Shown one piece after another: positions 2,898-62,966 of a DNA stretch of 64,000 nucleotides (within the stretch, counting starts at the first letter, position 1; each line of letters starts with the position of its first letter). The notes under the pieces were generated by a model, which was not told the DNA's origin, searched no databases, and saw only the letters and a program-made list of their open reading frames with translations. Made by a program: the position numbers and the translations under genes. Origin of the DNA: Arenicellales bacterium (GTDB lineage: Bacteria > Pseudomonadota > Gammaproteobacteria > Arenicellales > JAJDZL01). The stretch lies in assembly GCA_965205205.1 (NCBI GenBank), contig CBDBFX010000002.1, positions 1,053,475-1,117,474 of the forward strand, given 5' to 3'.

Positions 2898-4647
2898 CCC
2901 GCATTTTTCACCGATAGTTATGAAAAATGTGAAAAATGAGTTATAATGACAACTTAATCAATTAATTATGTCATTTAAAGAGGACTCATCCATGAATGCA
3001 CAGTGTTATCAGACGCAGTTGGAATTTCAACCCAGTGGCCGGCGCGCGGTGACCGCCAAATTCGACAGCGAACAGATCAGTTCCGATGGTGGCGCCCTGC
3101 TGCTGCGGGAGGTTGACCGGCGGATCGGTCTGACCGACCGTCTGGCCGATTGTTTCATCGACTACCGCAACCCGGCCAGCGTGCGACACCACGTTAAGGT
3201 CCTGCTGCGCCAGCGCATTTATGGCATTACGATGGGTTATGAAGATCTCAACGACCATGAGCACCTGAGCGACGACCGGTTGATGGGGGTGATGGTGGAT
3301 CGGCTGGAGCAGATGGTGGACCAGGGGCAGGCACTGGCCAGTCCGAGCACGCTGAACCGCCTGGAGTTGGGGCACCCGGACGAGGCGGCGAATGACCGCT
3401 ACAAACGCATCGTGGCCATCGGTGAGGCGATGGATCGGCTGTTGGCGGACCTGTTCATGGAGTCGTTCGAGGCGCCACCGAAGGAACTGTGGCTGGACCT
3501 GGATGCGACGGACGATCCGCTGCACGGGGAGCAGGAGGGTCGGTTCTTTCACGGCTACTATGACTGCTACTGCTATCTGCCACTGTACATTTTCTGTGGC
3601 GAGCAGCTGCTGTGCAGTCGGCTGCGCACGTCAGATCAGGATGGTGCGGCGGGCAGTGTGGAGGAGTTGGAACGGATCGTCGGACAGTTGCGGGCGCGCT
3701 GGCCAAAGGTTCGGGTGGTGATACGAGCCGATTCGGGGTTCTGCCGGGAAGACATCATGGCGTGGTGTGAGCAGGAGGAGGTGCAGGTGGATTATGTCCT
3801 TGGTTTGGCACGCAATTCGCGTCTGGAGGCGGCGCTGTCGGAGGAGATGGATGAGGCCGCTGAGGAGCATGAGCGCACGGGCGAGGCGGTGCGCCGGTTC
3901 GGCGAGTTCAGTTATCAGACGCGTAGCTCGTGGAGTCGGGCGCGGCGGGTGATTGGCAAGGCGGAACATCTGCGGCGGGGGGCCAATCCGCGGTTCGTGG
4001 TGACCAGCCTGTCGGCCGAGGAGGTGGATGCTCAGGAGCTGTATGAGGAGAAATACTGCGCCCGCGGCGACATGGAGAACCGCATCAAGGAGCAGCAGTT
4101 GGACCTGTTTGCGGACCGCACCAGTTCGCACCAGATGGCGGCCAATCAGCTGCGCCTGTACTTCGCCTCGTTCGCTTATGGGCTGCTCGAGGCGCTGCGT
4201 CGTCTGGGCGCCAAGGGCACCCGCCTGGCGCGGGCGCAGAGTGGCACGCTGCGGCTGAAGCTGATCAAGGTCGGGGTGCGCCTTCGGGTGACCACCCGCC
4301 GGGTGTGGCTGTCGATGTCGGCGGGTTATCCGCATGCCGAGGTGCTGGACAATCTGGGCCAGCTGCCACTGTGGAGGCCGCCGCCTGATTTCAACTAGGG
4401 TGTCATCGGGTCGGCTCGGGTGCCGACCGCCGGTTCGATCGCCGACTTTGTCAGGGGCGAGGATGGCACGCGCCCTGACCATGCCGCAACGGGCTGAACG
4501 GGCCTTGACGGGCCGGAAAAACGCGGTTTCCGCGGTGCGCTCGCCGGCCCTGTCACTGGCTGACGGCGGTTTTCTCATCCAACTGATGAAATCAACGCTT
4601 GGCGACGGCCATTTCAACCCAGAATACAAATCGGTGAAATATGCGGG
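2898..4647 (+). mobile_element. IS1380-family insertion sequence, 1,750 bp, apparently intact
   Basis: The terminal inverted repeats are CCCGCATTTTTCACCGA (2898-) and the reverse complement of TCGGTGAAATATGCGGG (-4647). A TTAA direct duplication flanks the element at 2894-2897 and 4648-4651. Removing the element and one TTAA restores the reading ...TERFNVWRIGRL of the host gene. Confidence 0.85.
2968..4398 (+). CDS. IS1380-family DDE transposase
   Basis: This is a 476-aa ORF. LEFQPSGRRAVTAKFDSEQISSDGGALLLREVDRRIGL...QRIYGITMGYEDLNDHEHL is the characteristic IS1380-family N-terminus. An alternative start exists at the ATG 24 nt downstream. Confidence 0.9.
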   Translation: MSFKEDSSMNAQCYQTQLEFQPSGRRAVTAKFDSEQISSDGGALLLREVDRRIGLTDRLADCFIDYRNPASVRHHVKVLLRQRIYGITMGYEDLNDHEHLSDDRLMGVMVDRLEQMVDQGQALASPSTLNRLELGHPDEAANDRYKRIVAIGEAMDRLLADLFMESFEAPPKELWLDLDATDDPLHGEQEGRFFHGYYDCYCYLPLYIFCGEQLLCSRLRTSDQDGAAGSVEELERIVGQLRARWPKVRVVIRADSGFCREDIMAWCEQEEVQVDYVLGLARNSRLEAALSEEMDEAAEEHERTGEAVRRFGEFSYQTRSSWSRARRVIGKAEHLRRGANPRFVVTSLSAEEVDAQELYEEKYCARGDMENRIKEQQLDLFADRTSSHQMAANQLRLYFASFAYGLLEALRRLGAKGTRLARAQSGTLRLKLIKVGVRLRVTTRRVWLSMSAGYPHAEVLDNLGQLPLWRPPPDFN

Positions 4648-5680
4648 TTAACGTCTGGCGGATTGGCCGACTCAGCCGCGAGGAGTCGATGCGGGCGCTC
4701 ACCGAGCCGTTCGGTGACCGGGGGCATTTTGAGGCCGATGCGCTGTCAATGGTTCTTGATCAGGCACAGGGTTATCCCTACTTCATACAGGTGTGGGGCG
4801 TGCGCTGTGGAACTTGATGGCCCGGTCTGTGAACAACTTGATTGGTCGGGCGGAAGTTGCGGCAGCGATGGCAACGGCGCAGCAAGCACGCCAGGAGCTG
4901 TATAGTCGCCGGATGGATGAGTTCATACAGAATGGCATGCTGACCGCCGTCGCCGAGATGACACTCCAGATCGAAAGCGGCGCTGATGCCGACGGCTCGT
5001 ACCTGACGATGGCGGCGGATAGAATAGCTGCCAGAGTGAGTGGCGACGCCACTGCGATTGAACAACGGCTGCTGCACACCGGTTTTTATTGGAACACGGA
5101 GCCCGATAAGTGGGAGTATGGTATTCCAAGCCTCGCCAACCATGCTCGCAGAAGGGCAATAAAAAACACCGTCACAGCCATTGCCAGCTCCAATACGAAT
5201 ACGGTATTGGCGAAACTGGTGGAAATGCTACCCAGCGGACGGATGGTTGCTGAGGAAGATTTGCAGAGCGCACTGGCGGTAGAAGTGGGAAACGATGTGG
5301 ATGTGGGGTTCGCGCTGGAACTGCTGAAAAATCTTGGGTATTTGATTCCAGCGTTTAAAAAAGGATCGACTCCAGATCGGCGCTCCATTGCTGGCCCGAC
5401 AGGTGCTGGCGGCCATGGAAAAAATGGAAGGCACTGAGGTCTATCACCGGATGAGCCCCTGAACTGGAATGAAACACAGCAACCGATAAGATGGGCCAGC
5501 CAATCTGCGGCACGTAATTTTGTAAAGCAACGGAATTCAAACGCTCCAATTACCGGCCCCTCTGCGACCTCATCCATATCCACATGAACGGATGTCGACA
5601 CCGTTCACAACAAAGTATGCACGTCCTACCAGCCGACTACGTCTATTGAGCGCGTAACAACTCACAGCGATATTTCCGAG

Positions 5681-13234: not shown

Positions 13235-14266
13235 CCTAATTACCGTTTATATTAAGCCTAACTTTAGCAGTCTGTCGGGCATGGGTGGCGTTCTGAGTGC
13301 CACATAAGCCAAGCGTGGAATCAGATCGGGCAGTTGGAACCGGCGGTTGAACCGGTACTCGAACGCCGCCAGATACCGGTGCGCGTATTTGCCGCTGACC
13401 GAGTGATGGGTGCTGCGGATGGCCGACTTGACGTTGCCGAGCATGGTGTTCACCTAGTGAAACTCAGGCTTCTGGACACTGGCTTTGCCACCGCCGGTGA
13501 CCACCACCTGATGATCGAAACCAGCCTCGCTCAGGGCGTTGAAACAGGGCAGTCCGTCGGAACAGACCCAGGTGCCGTCCGCCAGATGCCGCCTCGCCCA
13601 GGCGGCGACCTCCGAGCTCCTGAAACCTTTGATCACGCTCAACTTCATGCGGAGCGGATGCCCCTGGTCGTTGGTCTGCACGGCCGCCAGGAACGGAGTC
13701 TCGGCGGCCGCCCCGCGGCCGCGTTTGCCACCGCTTCGCTCACCGCCGAGATACGCGTCGTCGATTTGCACCAGACCCTCCAGCTGATGTTTGTCATCGC
13801 GTTCCATCATCACCTGCATCAGCTTGTGCTTGATCCGCCAGGCCGCATCGTAGGAAATGCCCAGCTCGCGGTGCAGCTGCATCGCCGAGACGCCCTTTTT
13901 GCTCTGCGTCAGCAGGTAGATGGCCAGAAACCACACCGTCAGCGGCAGTTTGGTGGAACTGAAGATGGTGCCCGCCGTCACCGAGGTCTGGCGGTGGCAC
14001 CGATAGCACTGCTGCAGCCGGCGGGTGGTCAGCAGACAGGCCCGGTCATGTCCGCAGTGCGGACAGACAAAGCCCTTCGACCATCGCCACTCGAACAGCG
14101 CCTGAAAGCACTGTTCTTCGGTGCCGTAGGCTTTTAGAAAATCGGTCAGACTGATGCCTTTCTGAAACTGTATTGCGTTGCGAGCCATTGAATATCTCCC
14201 CATTATCAGTAAATTATGATATTATTAGTATATCACAAGTGCCGCTTATTATTCACGGTAATTAGG
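13235..14266 (-). mobile_element. IS1595-family insertion sequence (~1,032 bp) with an inactivated transposase
   Basis: The terminal inverted repeats are CCTAATTACCGT (13235-13246) and ACGGTAATTAGG (14255-14266). The 8-bp flanks are nearly identical: AATGTGAA on the left and AATGGAAT on the right. Confidence 0.8.
13247..14203 (-). pseudogene. IS1595-family (ISXO2-like) transposase interrupted by an in-frame TAG
   Basis: It has an N-terminal zinc ribbon (CPHCGH...CYRCHRQ) and a DDE domain. The reading ...KPEFH-TAG-VNTMLGNVK has its stop at 13454-13456. The related copy near 59.6 kb reads KPEFHWVNTMLGNVK, so TGG became TAG. Confidence 0.8.
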
Positions 14267-14338: not shown

Positions 14339-14623
14339 ATGTTGAAGAAACGGTATTCGGAAGAATTCAAACAGATGGTTTGTGAGAAGATGCGGCAGGG
14401 GGTGGCGCCCTCGCAGTTGGCCCGCGAGTATGAGCCGCGGCTGCAGACGCTGTATCGGTGGAAGCGGGCGATGCTGCACGAGGGGCCGGACGCGGCGGCG
14501 GAAAGTGCCGCGAAGATACGGCAGTTGGAAAAGCAGGTTCGCCAGTTGAAGGAGGATAGGGAAATATTGGAAAAAGCGGCGACCTGGTTCGCAAGGGCAC
14601 ACGGACAAGGGCTGAGCAGGTAA
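14339..14623 (+). CDS. IS3-family transposase OrfA (HTH plus leucine-zipper part)
   Basis: MLKKRYSEEFKQMVCEKMRQGVAPSQLAREYEPRLQTLYRWKR followed by ...IRQLEKQVRQLKEDREILEKAATWFA is a typical IS3 OrfA. Confidence 0.85.
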   Translation: MLKKRYSEEFKQMVCEKMRQGVAPSQLAREYEPRLQTLYRWKRAMLHEGPDAAAESAAKIRQLEKQVRQLKEDREILEKAATWFARAHGQGLSR

Positions 14624-15522: not shown

Positions 15523-16056
15523 ATCCAGTGACCGGGATCCAGTAAGGGGTAGTGACTAACATTATTAACTGTGACCGAAACCGAATACAGTACAGGAAAT
15601 GTGAATGTTCAGTGGGTTGCTTTCATCACTACCGTCTTTACCGATGGCTCCTGCTTCAGCGACTAAAAAATGACGCCGACACTGATTCAATTCGAAAGGC
15701 ACAAATATCAAACGGTAATGGTTAATTTTGGATATTTGCTCATTATAGTTTGCTACGTGCGCCAATTAACCCGCTAGCTGAGGCGCTACGCCCTGCCGCG
15801 GACCGCTCAGCTCCAATACTGACTTCAGTCGGTGCGTCTGAAAACCGATCCAAACACCTCGCAACACAGCCAGCAGTCCCATCGGCACCAGAGTAACCGC
15901 CCTAGATATCCCTGATTTCGAAAACCGCTACATTTCCGTCTCTAATTCATGCTTTAATTGCGATCTAATCTCAAAATATTGTTTTTCAGGCATCATTCAC
16001 CCTGGAACAGAAATTGCCCAGACTCCAATTTCATTGGGTACAAAGAGGATATTACG

Positions 16057-49230: not shown

Positions 49231-49528
49231 ATGTGGGTCAGAGACGGGAATGTGCGGTTTTCGAAATCAAAGGCGTCTTGGGCGGTGATGCTGGCACCGA
49301 TGGGCATGGCTGCCATTGTCTTCCAGACACTCATTGACCGATGGGGTATGGACGACGCATCCGACGCGGTGGCAGGAGGAAGCGTTCAGACTGTTGGGAT
49401 GGCGTCATGCTCGAACGGTCCTTGAACCTGGTCCCGATGAGCGGGCTTTGCCGGGATGAAAAACGCGGCTTCAGCCTCGCGGTCGCCGGCCATTTCAACC
49501 CAGAATCCAAATCGGTGAAGTATGCGGG
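49231..49528 (+). mobile_element. Orphan 3' end of an IS1380-family element (truncated remnant)
   Basis: The last ~75 bp are GCCGGCCATTTCAACCCAGAATCCAAATCGGTGAAGTATGCGGG. This matches the right end of the intact IS at 4604-4647 (CGGCCATTTCAACCCAGAATACAAATCGGTGAAATATGCGGG). The upstream part is weakly similar to the transposase C-terminus. The left boundary is uncertain. Confidence 0.55.
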
Positions 49529-49732
49529 CTAAAGGAGTCTTTGGTCATCAACATCCTTTGAAGCCAGGGATGGCCGCTGATGGCCGCCTGAGCGGAAAGC
49601 ACCGGTGAACGATCAATCAAAACGACCTTTCAATTTCGATTATTCTAAATGGAACACGGGTGCCAATCAACCGAGTCTGTCTGATTGCTGAGCTGATCAG
49701 TCGCGGCAATACTGAAACCACATCTTCCGAAA

Positions 49733-59278: not shown

Positions 59279-59797
59279 CCAATCCCGTCAATAATCATCA
59301 AACTCTCCCACTTAAACAAATGAATGATATATTCATTTCATCATATTCTTTTCATTATCATATACTACAATCATACATACTCTATTCCATACCCCATCAA
59401 GGCACCCATCATGAGCCTGAAACAGACCTGCCTGTTCGACGAATCCGACTCCCCGCGCCGCCAAGACGATGAACAGTTCGCGCACCATTCAGGGCTTGGT
59501 CAACGCCCTGAGCGAGACCGGTTTCGATCCTCAAGCGGTGTGGTCACCGGCGGTGGCAAAGCCAGTGTTCACAAGCCTGAGTTTCACTGGGTGAACACGA
59601 TGCTCGGTAACGTCAAGTCGGCCATCCGCAGTACTCATCATTCGGTCAGCAGCAAATTCGCACTCCGGTATCTGGCGGCGTTCAAGTACCGGTCCAACCT
59701 GCCCAATCCGATTCCCCGGTTGGCTTATGCGACCCTCAGGACACCACCCATGCCCAACAGACTGCTAAAGTTAGGCTGAATACAATCGGCAATTAGG
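59279..59797 (+). mobile_element. Internally deleted, frameshifted IS1595-family derivative (~519 bp, MITE-like)
   Basis: The left end CCAATCCCGTCAATAATCATC resembles the reverse complement of the intact copy's other terminus at 14244-14266, CCTAATTACCGTGAATAATAAGC. The right end ...AAGTTAGGCTGAATACAATCGGCAATTAGG mirrors the terminus at 13235. The interior encodes NALSETGFD...(frameshift)...TGGGKASVHKPEFHWVNTMLGNVKSAIRSTHHSV..., homologous to the C-terminal quarter of the 13.2-14.2 kb transposase. Confidence 0.6.
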
Positions 59798-59826
59798 AAC
59801 GCTTATCGTCTATTTCCATCCAGAAC

Positions 59827-60253
59827 TTCAGTTTAACCGATCACCTTTCATATGCAGCTGATGAGAACTTTAAAAGCCTTCTGTTCTTGACGCGTACATG
59901 ACCTTTCGATATGGCATCAATGCTGACTTCGACTGGATTCGACCGCATCAGGCATTCTGGTTGCTGTTTACCAGGTAAACACCTCAAAATCGACAGCTCA
60001 TCGTCCCATATCGGCAGGTAAACTGACCAATCAATGACAGATGGTCTGAATTCGATGCGATGGCGATCAGTTCAGTCGATCTCTGGCAAGTTGGAATGAT
60101 TTGACAGGGGTCCTCGAAACGCTCCGGCCATCACCCCCTGCCATCCGGCCGACCCGTGCGTTCTTCCCTGAAAACAGACACCGGGAAAGAATGCCAATGT
60201 CCTCACCCGCAGCTGAATCACAGACCACCGTTCCTCAGCTTCGCAATCTCCTC
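59827..60253. repeat. Direct repeat copy A (~427 bp) covering the last 12 codons of rpn plus ~390 bp downstream of it
   Basis: I hand-aligned it to 62375-62800. The right-hand ~310 bp are about 95 percent identical and the left-hand ~115 bp are much more diverged. It contains the 15-bp palindrome GTTTACCAGGTAAAC (59966-59980). Confidence 0.85.
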
Positions 60254-61216
60254 CCTGCTGAACTGCGTCACCGTTTCAACATCCCGGTCCGAATATCCCG
60301 CACGAATCATGCGCTCGGCCGTCTCGCACCTATTCTCCTGAACGCCTTTCTCATGACCCTTCTCCAGTCCCGTATCATGACCGAGCTGCCATGCTTCGGC
60401 AACCGAATCCGGCTGCAGCTCCTCCCATATCCTTATCACGTCCTGCATGTTCTTATCTCCTAGCATCGCCGCCAGCTGTTCATATAGCATTTTCTTAGTC
60501 TTCGAAATTATAACTGACCGTCTCACTCCTGACAGGTATTTCACCAGACTGCTGATGAATGGCCGGCGCAGCGCCTCTGTCAGCCGCCGCGCCCGCGCCA
60601 CCCAGTCGGCACACCGCCGCTCATCCGCCACCCAGATGTCGGCCATCACCTCCAGCACCAGGGACTCCTTGAGCGGCAGCTGCCGCAGCCGGTGCCGAAC
60701 CGCCGCTTCGCGCAGATTCACGAAGATGGCCTCGAAGTCCAGCAGACGGTGGCGGTTGAGCTGCAGAAAACCTGCCTCCAGCTCGGCGTGCCGCCAGTCG
60801 GAGAAGGACTTCCGGCCACACCACTCGGCACGCCCATGATAGACGATGACCGGCAGGACCGCATGGCTGCCATTCTTATACAGCAGGGTGATGTAGTTGA
60901 GCAGCTGCTCCATCGCCCGCCCGTCCTTGGAACTTTTGTGTTCGAAGATGAGGTGGACGCGGCTGTGCGCGTCGTGTCGGAGGCGGACCTCGACGATCAG
61001 GTCGGCCTGATAGCCGCGCAGGTCCGGCTCGTCGAACAGTGTGCCGGGCACGAGGCGGATGGTGCGCAGGTCATACAGTTTCAGTTCGGCCGGCGGCAGG
61101 GCGAGTTTGAGCAGGGTGCGCACCGCTCGGAGCTGTTGAAAATGGGCTCTGAAAAACAGATCGTGCCAGGAATCGGACGGCCGGTCCTGGACTGGGGAAG
61201 AAATTGTGCTTGACAT
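60218..61216 (-). CDS. Rpn-family (YhgA-like) recombination-promoting nuclease / putative transposase, PD-(D/E)xK fold
   Basis: DLFFRAHFQQ...YQADLIVEVRL...VHLIFEHKSSKDGRAMEQLLNY is the characteristic D...EhKS core of the Transposase_31/Rpn family. The C-terminal helical tail ends ...SREEIAKLRNGGL. Confidence 0.8.
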   Translation of the reverse strand: MSSTISSPVQDRPSDSWHDLFFRAHFQQLRAVRTLLKLALPPAELKLYDLRTIRLVPGTLFDEPDLRGYQADLIVEVRLRHDAHSRVHLIFEHKSSKDGRAMEQLLNYITLLYKNGSHAVLPVIVYHGRAEWCGRKSFSDWRHAELEAGFLQLNRHRLLDFEAIFVNLREAAVRHRLRQLPLKESLVLEVMADIWVADERRCADWVARARRLTEALRRPFISSLVKYLSGVRRSVIISKTKKMLYEQLAAMLGDKNMQDVIRIWEELQPDSVAEAWQLGHDTGLEKGHEKGVQENRCETAERMIRAGYSDRDVETVTQFSREEIAKLRNGGL

Positions 61217-61772
61217 CTGGATTCACCTCGCATAAAAGTGTGGCATACTGAACGGCCGCCGCGCGCAGCCGACCGGTCGGGCAGCTGGCGAGTTGGCATG
61301 AACGGCGTCTTGTACCTCGTTTCGGGAGCGTTTTCAACAGAAAACTGAAAATCCGTCACAGATCAATTAATCGGCCGCTGATGTCGAGCCGATATTGCTG
61401 AATGTTGGAGGTCTCTGCTGGGAAAGGTTCGGAGGCGCTCGCCTGGAACGGTTGCGGGTAAGAATGATGAACGCCGCGGCTCAAAAGGATGTCAACTGCC
61501 GGTTTCAACCGGTCTCTAAGCCTCGAATCTCAACAGATGCCACCCACGCCCGATTCGAAGTGCAAGCGGGCAGAGAGTGTGGAATCGGCGGCATTACAAT
61601 AACCTGTCGCGGTGCGTCGACCGTTGGCAATATGGAATCACCCGCAAACTTAACTTCATGGAGGCCGTACTCCTGCGACAGTTTTAACCCGAAGTTCTGG
61701 AAGCAAATAAACGATAGGTATTTGTTAATTCAATGATACTTTGACTATCCAATGCTCAGTTTCTGACCACGT

Positions 61773-62160
61773 TTAGATTTTCACCTGCAACAGGTCAAAG
61801 GCGGTACGCTGCAGCTCAGTCTGTTCCGCCAACTGACTGAACCGCTGCTGAAACTGTTCGATGACAACAGTGTTGCGACACAAGGTGCCCAAGTGTCCGA
61901 GCAGGCCGCGGAAGTGATGGGTCGGATGACCGTGCGCCGCGCGCCGCTTTGCGCCGGGCACTGGCCGAAGGAACGCTGGAGCGCACCGGCGAGCCGCGCC
62001 GCCTCCTGGCGGTCATCCTCGGCGAACAGCAGTGGCGCCCAGGCCCGTCTCATGTGCCATTCCACATGGGGCCCGCCTCAGCCGGCCGAGACCAGCTCGC
62101 CGAAGCGAAGCCGCGGTTGATGCCCACCGATGTCTGGCCACCCGGGTACAGGAGTTACTC
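61773..62160 (-). pseudogene. Frameshifted C-terminal remnant of a DDE transposase (IS4/IS1634-like; family assignment tentative)
   Basis: The two overlapping minus-strand frames read ...HVEWHMRRAWAPLLFAEDDRQEAARLAG... and ...PGAKRRAAHGHPTHHFRGLLGHLGTLCRNTVV...TELQRTAFDLLQVKI. This recalls transposase C-termini, with no intact upstream part. Confidence 0.4.
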
Positions 62161-62374
62161 ACCATGAAGTCGGACACCTCCTGGTGCCAACCAAACTGAT
62201 AGGACCACTACCGTCGAGTCCACTACACTTCAGATTCGCACCCTTGAACCGACTGATGGCAGACCGGCATCAACTGCTTCCATATGTACGCCTGATTGTG
62301 GCCACCCTTCTCGGTCCAGATAGCGTCTATCGTCATAAATTGCAGAACACTCACCGCCCTTTCGCCTCGGAGTG

Positions 62375-62800
62375 TTCAGTTTATCCGATCACCATTCGGC
62401 TGCCGCTGATGAGAACTTTGAAAGCCTTGTGTTCTCGACGCGGGCAGGACCCTTCAATATGGCACCAATATTGACTGCGACTGGCTTCGACCGCATCAGG
62501 CATTGAGGTTGCTGTTTACCAGGTAAACACCTCAAAATCGACAGCTCATCGTCCCATATTGGAAGGTAAACTGACCAATCAATGACAGATGGTCTGAATT
62601 CGATGCGACGGCGATCAGTTCAGTCGCTCTCTGGCAAGCTGGAATGATTTGACAGGGCCCTCGAAACGCTCCGTCCATCACCCTCTGCCATCCGGCCGAC
62701 CCGTGCGTTCTTCCCTGAAAACAGACACCAGGGAAGAATGCCAATGTCCTCACCCGCAGCTGAATCACAGACCACCGTTCCTCAGCTTCGCAATCTCCTC
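62375..62800. repeat. Direct repeat copy B (~426 bp), including an orphan copy of the last 12 rpn codons
   Basis: It ends with TCACAGACCACCGTTCCTCAGCTTCGCAATCTCCTC, identical to 60218-60253, after which the similarity stops. It contains the same palindrome GTTTACCAGGTAAAC (62514-62528). Confidence 0.85.
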
Positions 62801-62966
62801 ATAGCAAATGCGATGACGAAGGCGGTCATCAGCCCGATCCAAGTTCAGACGAACAGCAGCATCCATTGCAGACTGGATAGCGGAAGAATTGGCTGAGTTG
62901 GTCATTACAGGATACCTTCTTCAAAACAGACGGCCGGATGCCGACAAAAAAAGTATCGGTACGTTT

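Follow-up and report, generated by a model that had tools for sequence, protein, structure and literature searches.

Anatomy of the rpn locus

The window (the whole 64-kb stretch of DNA analysed here) contains an intact rpn gene on the minus strand, bracketed by two long direct repeats and by remnants of IS1595- and IS1634-family insertion sequences (Table 1). The N-terminal domain of the encoded protein matches Pfam PF04754 above the cut-off (E 3.9e-21). The protein is also matched by the TIGR01784 and RpnA models and aligns with its paralogs, among which the residues of the catalytic D...E-x-K motif (D72, E92 and K94) are invariant. The C-terminus scores 40 bits against TIGR01784, below the cut-off of 52, and carries 4-residue repeats whose number differs between rpn paralogs. 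The genome encodes at least eight Rpn proteins (that of the window and seven further ones) plus a 75-aa fragment, every one of them on a contig equal in length to that of the window's protein, and the sequences of these paralogs look mosaic. Rpn loci from an Arenicellales MAG are more distant relatives, with about 39% protein identity to the window's rpn.

Within rpn, a promoter-like site precedes Met243, a candidate start for a predicted 90-aa internal protein of the RpnS type (Met243–Leu332); the gene call of the paralog fragment P0018 begins at the equivalent Met. The RpnS-type function that this protein may have is suggested by published work on rpn genes (Zhong et al. 2023, PMC10400941). 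According to the same work, tandem direct duplication gives rise to rpn arrays, mobile elements carry rpn genes along as hitchhikers, and terminal repeats are not found around these genes.

Table 1. Features of the rpn locus, in window coordinates.
Feature	Position	Strand	Details
IS1595-family remnant, 3' part	59500–59797	+	outer tip 59797 (..GGCAATTAGG)
IS1634-family end stub (ISy-a), 39 nt	59798–59836	-	terminal inverted repeat 59804–59836; tip 59836 adjoins tail A
Repeat copy A	59827–60253		10 nt IS tip + 381-nt tail + final 36 nt of rpn
Tail A	59837–60217	-	381 nt, from rpn stop codon to IS tip
Perfect palindrome GTTTACC-A-GGTAAAC	59966–59980 (tail A); 62514–62528 (tail B)
Extra half-site AGGTAAAC	60016–60023 (tail A); 62564–62571 (tail B)		43 nt beyond palindrome
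rpn, intact, 332 aa	60218–61216	-	N-terminal PD-(D/E)XK / Transposase_31; variable C-terminal domain
Promoter-like site in rpn	60488–60535	-	CTGTCA-17-TATAAT, then ATG of Met243
rpn upstream region	61217–61683	-	467 nt; reaches IS tip
IS1634-family remnant (ISy-b)	61684–62068	-	terminal repeat 61684–61716; tip 61684
Decayed IS1634-family transposase	61776–62068	-	last ~100 codons; frameshifts
Repeat copy B	62375–62800
IS tip TTCAGTTTAT	62375–62384	-	9/10 match to outer 10 nt of IS1634-type tip beside tail A
Tail B	62385–62764	-	380 nt; contains palindrome and half-site
Orphan rpn 3' stub	62765–62800	-	11 codons + stop, same as intact gene; similarity stops at 62800/62801

Alignment of the repeats bears out the description given in an earlier note on this DNA: two ~427-bp copies lie in the same orientation, their starts separated by 2,548 bp (an offset that falls to 2547 past the single 1-nt indel, at 60107), and 395 of the 427 aligned columns are identical. 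The indel disrupts, in copy A, the 78-aa open reading frame of copy B, which had also been reported not to be preserved there. Both copies end in the same 36 nt, previously described as the last 12 codons of rpn; these 36 nt encode 11 codons and the stop codon, and the count of 12 is reached only if the stop is included. In copy B they form, as had been recognized, an orphan stub. The right edge of similarity is abrupt, at 60253 in copy A and 62800 in copy B.

The differences between the copies are unevenly distributed. Identity is 84% in the distal tail (59837–59958; 20 differences in 122 nt) versus 96% in the rpn-proximal part (59959–60253; 11 differences in 295 nt; Fisher p = 4e-5), and the final 67 nt are free of any difference. 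Given the identical runs of 45–67 nt within the repeats, it is sound to suppose that, as was proposed, recombination between the copies could excise rpn.

Insertion-sequence ends around rpn

To the left of copy A lies the 3' part of an IS1595-family element. The open reading frame at 59324–59779 matches Pfam DDE_Tnp_IS1595, and the remnant shares 85% DNA identity with a near-complete IS at 13235–14266, the similarity ending at 59797. This reference copy fixes the end of the IS1595 element, and thus identifies the adjoining 39-nt stub, ISy-a, as a truncated IS1634-family end whose inner side was cut by the IS1595 element. The tip motif of ISy-a, TTAAACTGAAGTT, can be aligned with terminal repeats from annotated members of the IS1634 family.

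A second IS1634-family remnant, ISy-b, has the upstream region of the intact rpn on one side and tail B on the other. Its decayed transposase is recognizable by comparison with annotated IS1634-family transposases (tblastn E 6e-12), a similarity that ends at 62068. In its terminal repeat, ISy-b has TAACCCGAAGTT in common with an IS1634-family element of M. riyadhense, and the TTAACCCGAAGTT at 61684 is the terminal repeat of that element; the distance from transposase stop codon to tip is 89 nt in ISy-b versus 82 nt in the reference element. IS1634-type transposase fragments are seemingly rare in this genome, with one other in its protein set. Together, ISy-a and ISy-b contribute a 33-nt inverted repeat (59804–59836 and 61684–61716; 28 of 33 positions match), the arms of which enclose precisely the stretch from tail A through rpn to its upstream region. 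These arms are two IS1634-family ends, with their tips facing the rpn segment; the IS1595 reference copy shows that they do not belong to that family.

A further IS end is found at copy B. Both repeat copies open with the same 9–10 nt of IS tip, joined to the tail at the same nucleotide—that is, the junctions 59836/59837 and 62384/62385 are of the same type. The tip variant TAAACTGAA occurs beside copies A and B, while the opposite IS end carries a different one, TAACCCGAA. The sharing of a variant that is unlike the other end indicates that the IS copies were directly oriented, and that the junction was inherited by copying. At copy B, the recognizable part of the IS end is 10 nt long, and the 306 nt between it and ISy-b (62069–62374) match neither IS1595 nor IS1634 sequences significantly, nor any Pfam family. 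A motif-like pattern (THH..FRF..NR..KL) had raised the idea that another, diverged remnant of IS1595 lies to the left of copy B; this was rejected, as Pfam, BLASTP and alignment of the DNA all fail to support it.

To the right of 62800 lie unrelated sequence and a gene for a BMP-type binding protein; no IS end, and hence no third IS copy, is seen at 62801 or beyond. IS1634-family elements generate target-site duplications that are either 5–6 bp and AT-rich, or long and variable. None is visible at any junction (compare CAGTTT at 61678–61683 with CCGATC at 62385–62390).

Origin of the repeats

Read along the minus strand, the order of features is (i) rpn stub, tail B and IS, followed by (ii) upstream region, rpn, tail A and IS stub. 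These are two head-to-tail units, the first of which is cut 36 nt before the rpn stop codon. By this layout, the earlier suggestion of tandem rpn cassettes, one of them mostly lost, is essentially right, with the addition that the unit also contains an IS1634-family element. The other part of that suggestion, that a transposase remnant took the place of the second rpn body, does not fit: this body would be expected beyond the right edge of copy B (62800), a place now taken by unrelated DNA. On the sequence, the second rpn appears to have been lost by truncation against that DNA. Since an IS1634-family element is part of the repeated unit, the duplication was probably IS-mediated. The reading that we favour, with a probability of roughly 0.6, is that the repeats are the leftover of an IS-associated head-to-tail duplication of the rpn segment.

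Under this IS-associated duplication, each repeat copy would consist of an IS1634-family tip, the 381-nt rpn 3' flank and the rpn 3' end, and the duplicated unit would have run, on the minus strand, from the upstream region through rpn and the tail to the IS. We infer an order of events in which the most likely route begins with an rpn segment lying between two directly oriented IS copies. Unequal homologous recombination between these IS copies, or an equivalent IS-associated event, would give rise to an IS-segment-IS-segment arrangement. Later deletions and IS insertions would then have reduced one rpn to its last 36 nt, removed most of the middle IS, and trimmed the outer IS to 39 nt. The tail would have been kept alike by copying rather than by constraint. 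We also infer a step of gene conversion involving further rpn genes of this large family, which would best explain the uneven divergence of the copies; such heterogeneity is not what one neutral duplication would be expected to produce, and it counts against the duplication reading. So does the missing third IS copy, which is expected from unequal crossing-over. Further points against are the lack of target-site duplications, the mere 10 nt of IS end at copy B, the unexplained stretch at 62069–62374, and the rarity of IS1634-type fragments.

In another reading, copy B was brought in from elsewhere. It would have come either as a transposition unit (IS, tail and 36 nt of rpn) with one true IS end and a surrogate end inside rpn, or as what is left of another of the genome's rpn-IS units, which arrived at this place by insertion or recombination. 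The left junction of such a unit is the exact IS tip at 61684 and its right junction the abrupt edge at 62800 against unrelated DNA, and with 16% divergence in the distal tail, B does not look like a recent copy of A. Nevertheless, by eye, 60225–60253 bears no convincing likeness to an IS terminal repeat, no 5–6 bp target duplication is present at 61683 and 62801, and we judge such an import to be rather unlikely. IS1634 and IS1549 have been reported to make direct repeats of 8–514 bp (PMC2266710), a range into which ~417 nt falls, and an IS1634-family element does lie between the copies. That the repeat is itself a long target-site duplication is contradicted by the layout, since the two copies do not abut the opposite tips of one element: such a duplication must touch both IS tips, yet copy A lies 1.4 kb from the tip at 61684, separated from it by rpn and the region upstream of the gene, and the IS tip that precedes each copy is of the same type, where one copy on each side of the IS is expected. 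This makes a long target duplication very improbable. Least credible is an autonomous transposon consisting of rpn and its tail, bounded by 33-bp terminal inverted repeats (59804–61716). The exact bracketing of the segment by the inverted repeat, the naming of the rpn family as Transposase_31 and the many copies in the genome would all suit it. The proposal was rejected because the arms are inward-facing IS1634-family ends, the right arm being continuous with the IS1634 transposase remnant. In addition, no consistent common terminal repeats occur across three Arenicellales rpn units, the published analysis mentioned above (PMC10400941) finds none around rpn genes, and we give this idea almost no credence.

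The remaining alternative concerns function rather than descent; with two copies in one window, the two are not rigorously separable. The tail could serve this rpn subfamily as a functional 3' module and would then be kept alongside each copy of the gene. It might act as a site for protein binding, through the palindrome and half-site, as a site of recombination, or as an RNA that is antisense or derives from the 3' UTR. The rpn-proximal 295 nt, conserved while the distal part drifted, would be in line with this. The palindrome and the further half-site pointed out earlier are indeed found in both copies, and the 8-mer AGGTAAAC is restricted to the two tails within the 64-kb window; on the other hand, the motif is missing from the rpn upstream region, and perfect palindromes with 7-nt arms and spacers of 0–3 nt are not rare, with 26 in the window. 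Of three compensatory pairs found by RNAalifold, two belong to a single hairpin (59852–59858 with 59892–59899), but three or more are reached in 4–9% of null simulations, making the covariation borderline. Distant rpn paralogs at the loci of the Arenicellales MAG share 3' flanks of their own, of 50–330 nt and with a conserved hairpin, which speaks for a module; these flanks are unrelated in sequence to the window's tail.

No functional signal emerged from the searches of the tail. Rfam returns nothing at E<=1 inside tails A and B, and the fold is not unusual (z = -0.5 for tail A, with further z-scores of -1.9 and -1.7). The tail shows no coding signal, no similarity to the Rpn C-terminal domain, and no promoter-like or terminator-like site. 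Protein relatives are absent from a set of 5.8 billion sequences searched in six frames with a query from copy B, as are DNA relatives from metagenome and viral pattern scans and from BLAST against E. coli genomes, plasmids and phages. The earlier idea of a conserved 3' module that travels with Rpn genes is thus left unsupported by Rfam, fold, covariation, the collections searched and the fetched Arenicellales rpn 3' flanks, and a functional module of this kind strikes us as unlikely. We are still more doubtful of the specific version in which the tail is a cis-acting module of a rare rpn lineage—an operator-like cluster bound by the Rpn/RpnS C-terminal domain, or a site at which IS1634-family elements prefer to insert—that accompanies every rpn copy and aids its spread or regulation.

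Several identities proposed for parts of the tail were discarded. A decayed RpnS-like cassette was sought with an HMM of 13 C-terminal domains against six-frame translations, which matched only the 11-codon stub. A hammerhead ribozyme (CUGAUGAG followed by a short stem) lacks the GAAA core and has no Rfam match. The palindrome is presumably neither a LexA nor a TyrR box, given that its spacing and half-sites do not match.

Relation to known systems and significance

The IS-associated duplication has much in common with published tandem rpn duplications (Zhong et al. 2023, PMC10400941): the gene is one of a family with many copies, part of it is contained in the direct repeats together with its flank, rpn is without terminal repeats or target duplications of its own, and partial copies result from later deletion. 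It differs from them in that the unit includes an IS1634-family element and that the second copy, at 36 nt, is too short for a small RpnS. The locus also resembles the amplification of IS-flanked segments, in which an arrangement like that of a composite transposon undergoes unequal crossing-over, with directly oriented IS ends around a 1.85-kb segment, a duplicated IS-segment junction, and a middle IS joined to the segment end on one side and to the segment start on the other. Unlike in such amplifications, all IS copies have decayed, the third is missing, and no target duplications are left. With the long direct repeats (8–514 bp) of IS1634 and IS1549, the locus agrees in IS family and length; here, however, the IS does not have one copy on each side, and the two copies adjoin the same type of IS end. 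Finally, the partial 3' rpn duplication recalls free-standing rpnSs genes such as ypaA, in which the C-terminal domain is duplicated downstream, but the window's stub has only 11 codons and lies upstream of the intact rpn, and the tail is unlike the C-terminal domain. True free-standing rpnSs are seen at the Arenicellales MAG loci L002 and L003.

If the IS-associated duplication is the correct reading, the locus would be another case in which rpn toxin-antitoxin/defence genes multiply via insertion sequences and then erode, without being autonomously mobile. An IS-carried rpn duplication agrees with published views and adds little to them; to this extent, the finding is largely ordinary. If, instead, the tail accompanied all of the genome's rpn copies, it would constitute an unrecognised cis element of Rpn systems, with a bearing on how rpn genes move and on how the toxic nuclease is controlled.

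The repeat pair around rpn

The rpn nuclease gene is bracketed by two direct repeats, copy A (59827–60253) and copy B (62375–62800), which lie 2,548 bp apart in the same orientation. A repeat search, MAFFT and blastn all agree that these repeats, first proposed in the earlier note, are real. The copies are identical at 395 of 427 aligned columns and contain a single indel, of 1 nt, at 60107; in copy A this interrupts the 78-aa ORF of copy B, which, as the earlier note stated, is not kept there. Identity is unevenly distributed: 84% over 59837–59958 versus 96% over 59959–60253 (Fisher p = 4e-5), with no differences in the final 67 nt. The right boundary is abrupt, falling 36 nt into rpn (its 11 terminal codons and the stop). 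In copy B these 36 nt form an orphan, the rpn stub; the part of each copy between the rpn stop codon and the IS1634-family tip is referred to as tail A or tail B.

Features of the rpn locus and the IS1595-family element used for comparison (window positions)
Feature	Position	Strand	Details
IS1595-family element, near-complete	13235–14266	minus	1,032 bp; 30-nt terminal repeats, CCTAATTACCG...
IS1595 remnant	ends 59797
IS1634 end stub	59798–59836
Tail A	59837–60217
rpn ORF	60218–61216	minus	332 aa, Rpn/YhgA-like; Pfam PF04754 E 3.9e-21; TIGR01784 and RpnA models match
rpn upstream region	61217–61683
IS1634 remnant	from 61684
Sequence between IS1634 remnant and tip	62069–62374		306 nt, relatively high G+C
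IS1634 tip at copy B	62375–62384		10 nt
Tail B	62385–62764
rpn stub	62765–62800		36 nt
Unrelated DNA, then BMP-type binding-protein gene	right of rpn stub

Both copies carry the palindrome GTTTACC-A-GGTAAAC and, 43 nt beyond it, the further half-site AGGTAAAC, as originally described. Within the 64-kb window the 8-mer AGGTAAAC is confined to the two copies; perfect palindromes with 7-nt arms and spacers of 0–3 nt number 26, so such a palindrome is not unusual here. The window holds two more short repeat pairs, one direct (4603–4651 and 49484–49532; 49 nt, 92%) and one inverted (15878–15978 and 49304–49201; about 105 nt, 76%). A 46-aa ORF ends in the rpn stub; its 35 initial codons (62801–62905, minus strand), preceded by a plausible ribosome-binding site, are unrelated, and the protein database contains no homolog of them. 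They may come from the start of a gene that the rearrangement truncated, or form a chance ORF.

Insertion sequences and the probable origin of the repeats

A 33-nt inverted repeat (59804–59836 and 61684–61716, 28/33 matched) lies at the locus. Alignment of the transposase remnant left of copy A with the near-complete IS1595-family element places the remnant's end ahead of this repeat, which is therefore not part of IS1595. (An in-frame stop divides the transposase of the near-complete element between ORFs of 249 aa and 68 aa; beside the element lies a plus-strand ORF, 14339–14623, which may be IS3-family OrfA-like.) The affiliation of the arms is indicated by (i) the minus strand of 61776–62068, which encodes the C-terminal ~100 residues of a transposase of the IS1634 family (E 6e-12 in tblastn against annotated elements), (ii) the terminal repeats of annotated IS1634-family elements, which start TAACCCGAAGTT, the same 12 nt as 61685–61696, and (iii) the stop-to-tip distance, 89 nt here versus 82 nt in annotated elements. 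Together these identify both arms as IS1634-family ends, with their tips, at 59836 and 61684, facing the rpn segment. The inverted repeat had suggested a transposon made of rpn between terminal repeats, a reading dropped because these ends point inward. The left end is a 39-nt stub, the IS1595 element having truncated it. The two repeat copies open with 10 nt each, TTCAGTTTAA and TTCAGTTTAT, that form the outer tip of an IS1634-family end; both copies have the TAAACTGAA tip variant, while TAACCCGAA is found at 61684 instead.

Read on the minus strand, the locus consists of two head-to-tail units (upstream region, rpn, tail, IS), in the first of which everything before the last 36 coding nt is gone. 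The idea of tandem rpn cassettes was broadly right, except that it left out the IS; the proposed replacement of the second rpn body by a transposase remnant does not hold, since the remnant belongs to the repeat unit. No source was found for 62069–62374, whose motif-like likeness to the IS1595 transposase C-terminus lacks statistical support.

The most likely mechanism, judging from this arrangement, is IS-associated duplication followed by decay. The rpn segment between directly oriented IS copies would have been duplicated by unequal homologous recombination or an equivalent IS-associated event, with deletions and more IS insertions presumably following. This agrees with the published picture of rpn genes, which have no terminal repeats or target duplications of their own, form arrays by tandem direct duplication and hitchhike with mobile elements (PMC10400941). 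No target duplication was seen at the IS junctions of the locus, and a third IS copy is missing from it. IS1634 and IS1549 are known to produce direct repeats of 8–514 bp (PMC2266710), a range that would accommodate a long target duplication of an IS1634-type element; this reading is ruled out by the geometry, however, because copy A lies away from the left IS tip and the same kind of tip precedes both copies. IS-associated duplication alone accounts neither for the uneven divergence of the two tail parts nor for the lack of target duplications and of a third IS copy. In a less probable variant reading, the IS came in together with tail and stub as one unit, or copy B stems from another rpn–IS unit of the genome; this would explain why the distal tail has diverged by 16%.

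The Rpn lineage and its relatives

The window's Rpn belongs to a rare lineage, with only 12 relatives among 5.8 billion proteins. Four cluster representatives (77–83% identity) lie on a 3,805,514-bp contig, equal in length to the contig that carries the window's own Rpn; with other cluster members included, the genome's Rpn set amounts to 8 proteins (one N-terminally truncated) and a 75-aa fragment. The paralog sequences look mosaic and vary in the number of a 4-residue repeat, variation of the same kind as that described for RpnS dimer interfaces. These repeats, of GREE/GHEK type, lie just before the last helices (columns 288–303 of the paralog alignment); their number differs, for instance, between paralog P0004 and the window's Rpn. 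Inside rpn (60488–60535, minus strand), a sigma-70-like site, CTGTCA-17-TATAAT, stands 16 nt ahead of the Met243 ATG. A start there would yield a predicted 90-aa C-terminal protein resembling the intragenic RpnS antitoxins of E. coli; the 75-aa fragment, P0018 in the protein database, starts at the equivalent Met.

The next relatives are three paralogs from an Arenicellales MAG (about 39% identity; loci L001–L003). In this MAG (OZ219781.1), free-standing C-terminal-domain-only ORFs follow rpn at L002 (7024–8005; 114, 69 and 92 aa) and L003 (7152–7436; 94 aa), as tandem ~330-bp repeats of the rpn 3' end. They look like the rpnSs-type downstream copies reported in E. coli, arranged here in an array.

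Function of the tail

These tests gave no positive evidence for tail function. Rfam had no match inside the tails at E<=1, and fold z-scores on the minus strand were -0.5 for A and -1.9 for B; the plus strand of A scored -1.7. RNAalifold found three compensatory pairs, two within one hairpin; at least three arose in 4–9% of trials with randomly re-placed substitutions. No promoter-like or terminator-like sites occur inside the tail, the positions at which A and B differ follow no codon periodicity (p = 0.15), and six-frame products of copy B have no protein relative. A decayed Rpn C-terminal cassette was ruled out by a search for C-terminal-domain similarity. Relatives of the tail DNA were absent from E. 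coli genomes, plasmids, phages, JGI metagenomes and IMG/VR. A conserved 3' module travelling with rpn is unsupported by these results.

The three Arenicellales paralogs share 240–300 nt upstream and 50–330 nt downstream, which have no sequence relation to the window's tail. The shared part includes a small conserved hairpin, GTTGAATA..TATTCAAC (L001 7025–7050, L002 8025–8050, L003 7455–7480), about 25 nt past the last stop codon of each rpn unit; L003 has one compensatory change in it, C-G to T-A. No T-run follows the hairpin. Such shared flanks keep the module idea open, although duplication of regions predicts them anyway.

The locus is a further case of an already known kind of event. A tail accompanying all rpn copies, if true, would make the finding interesting.
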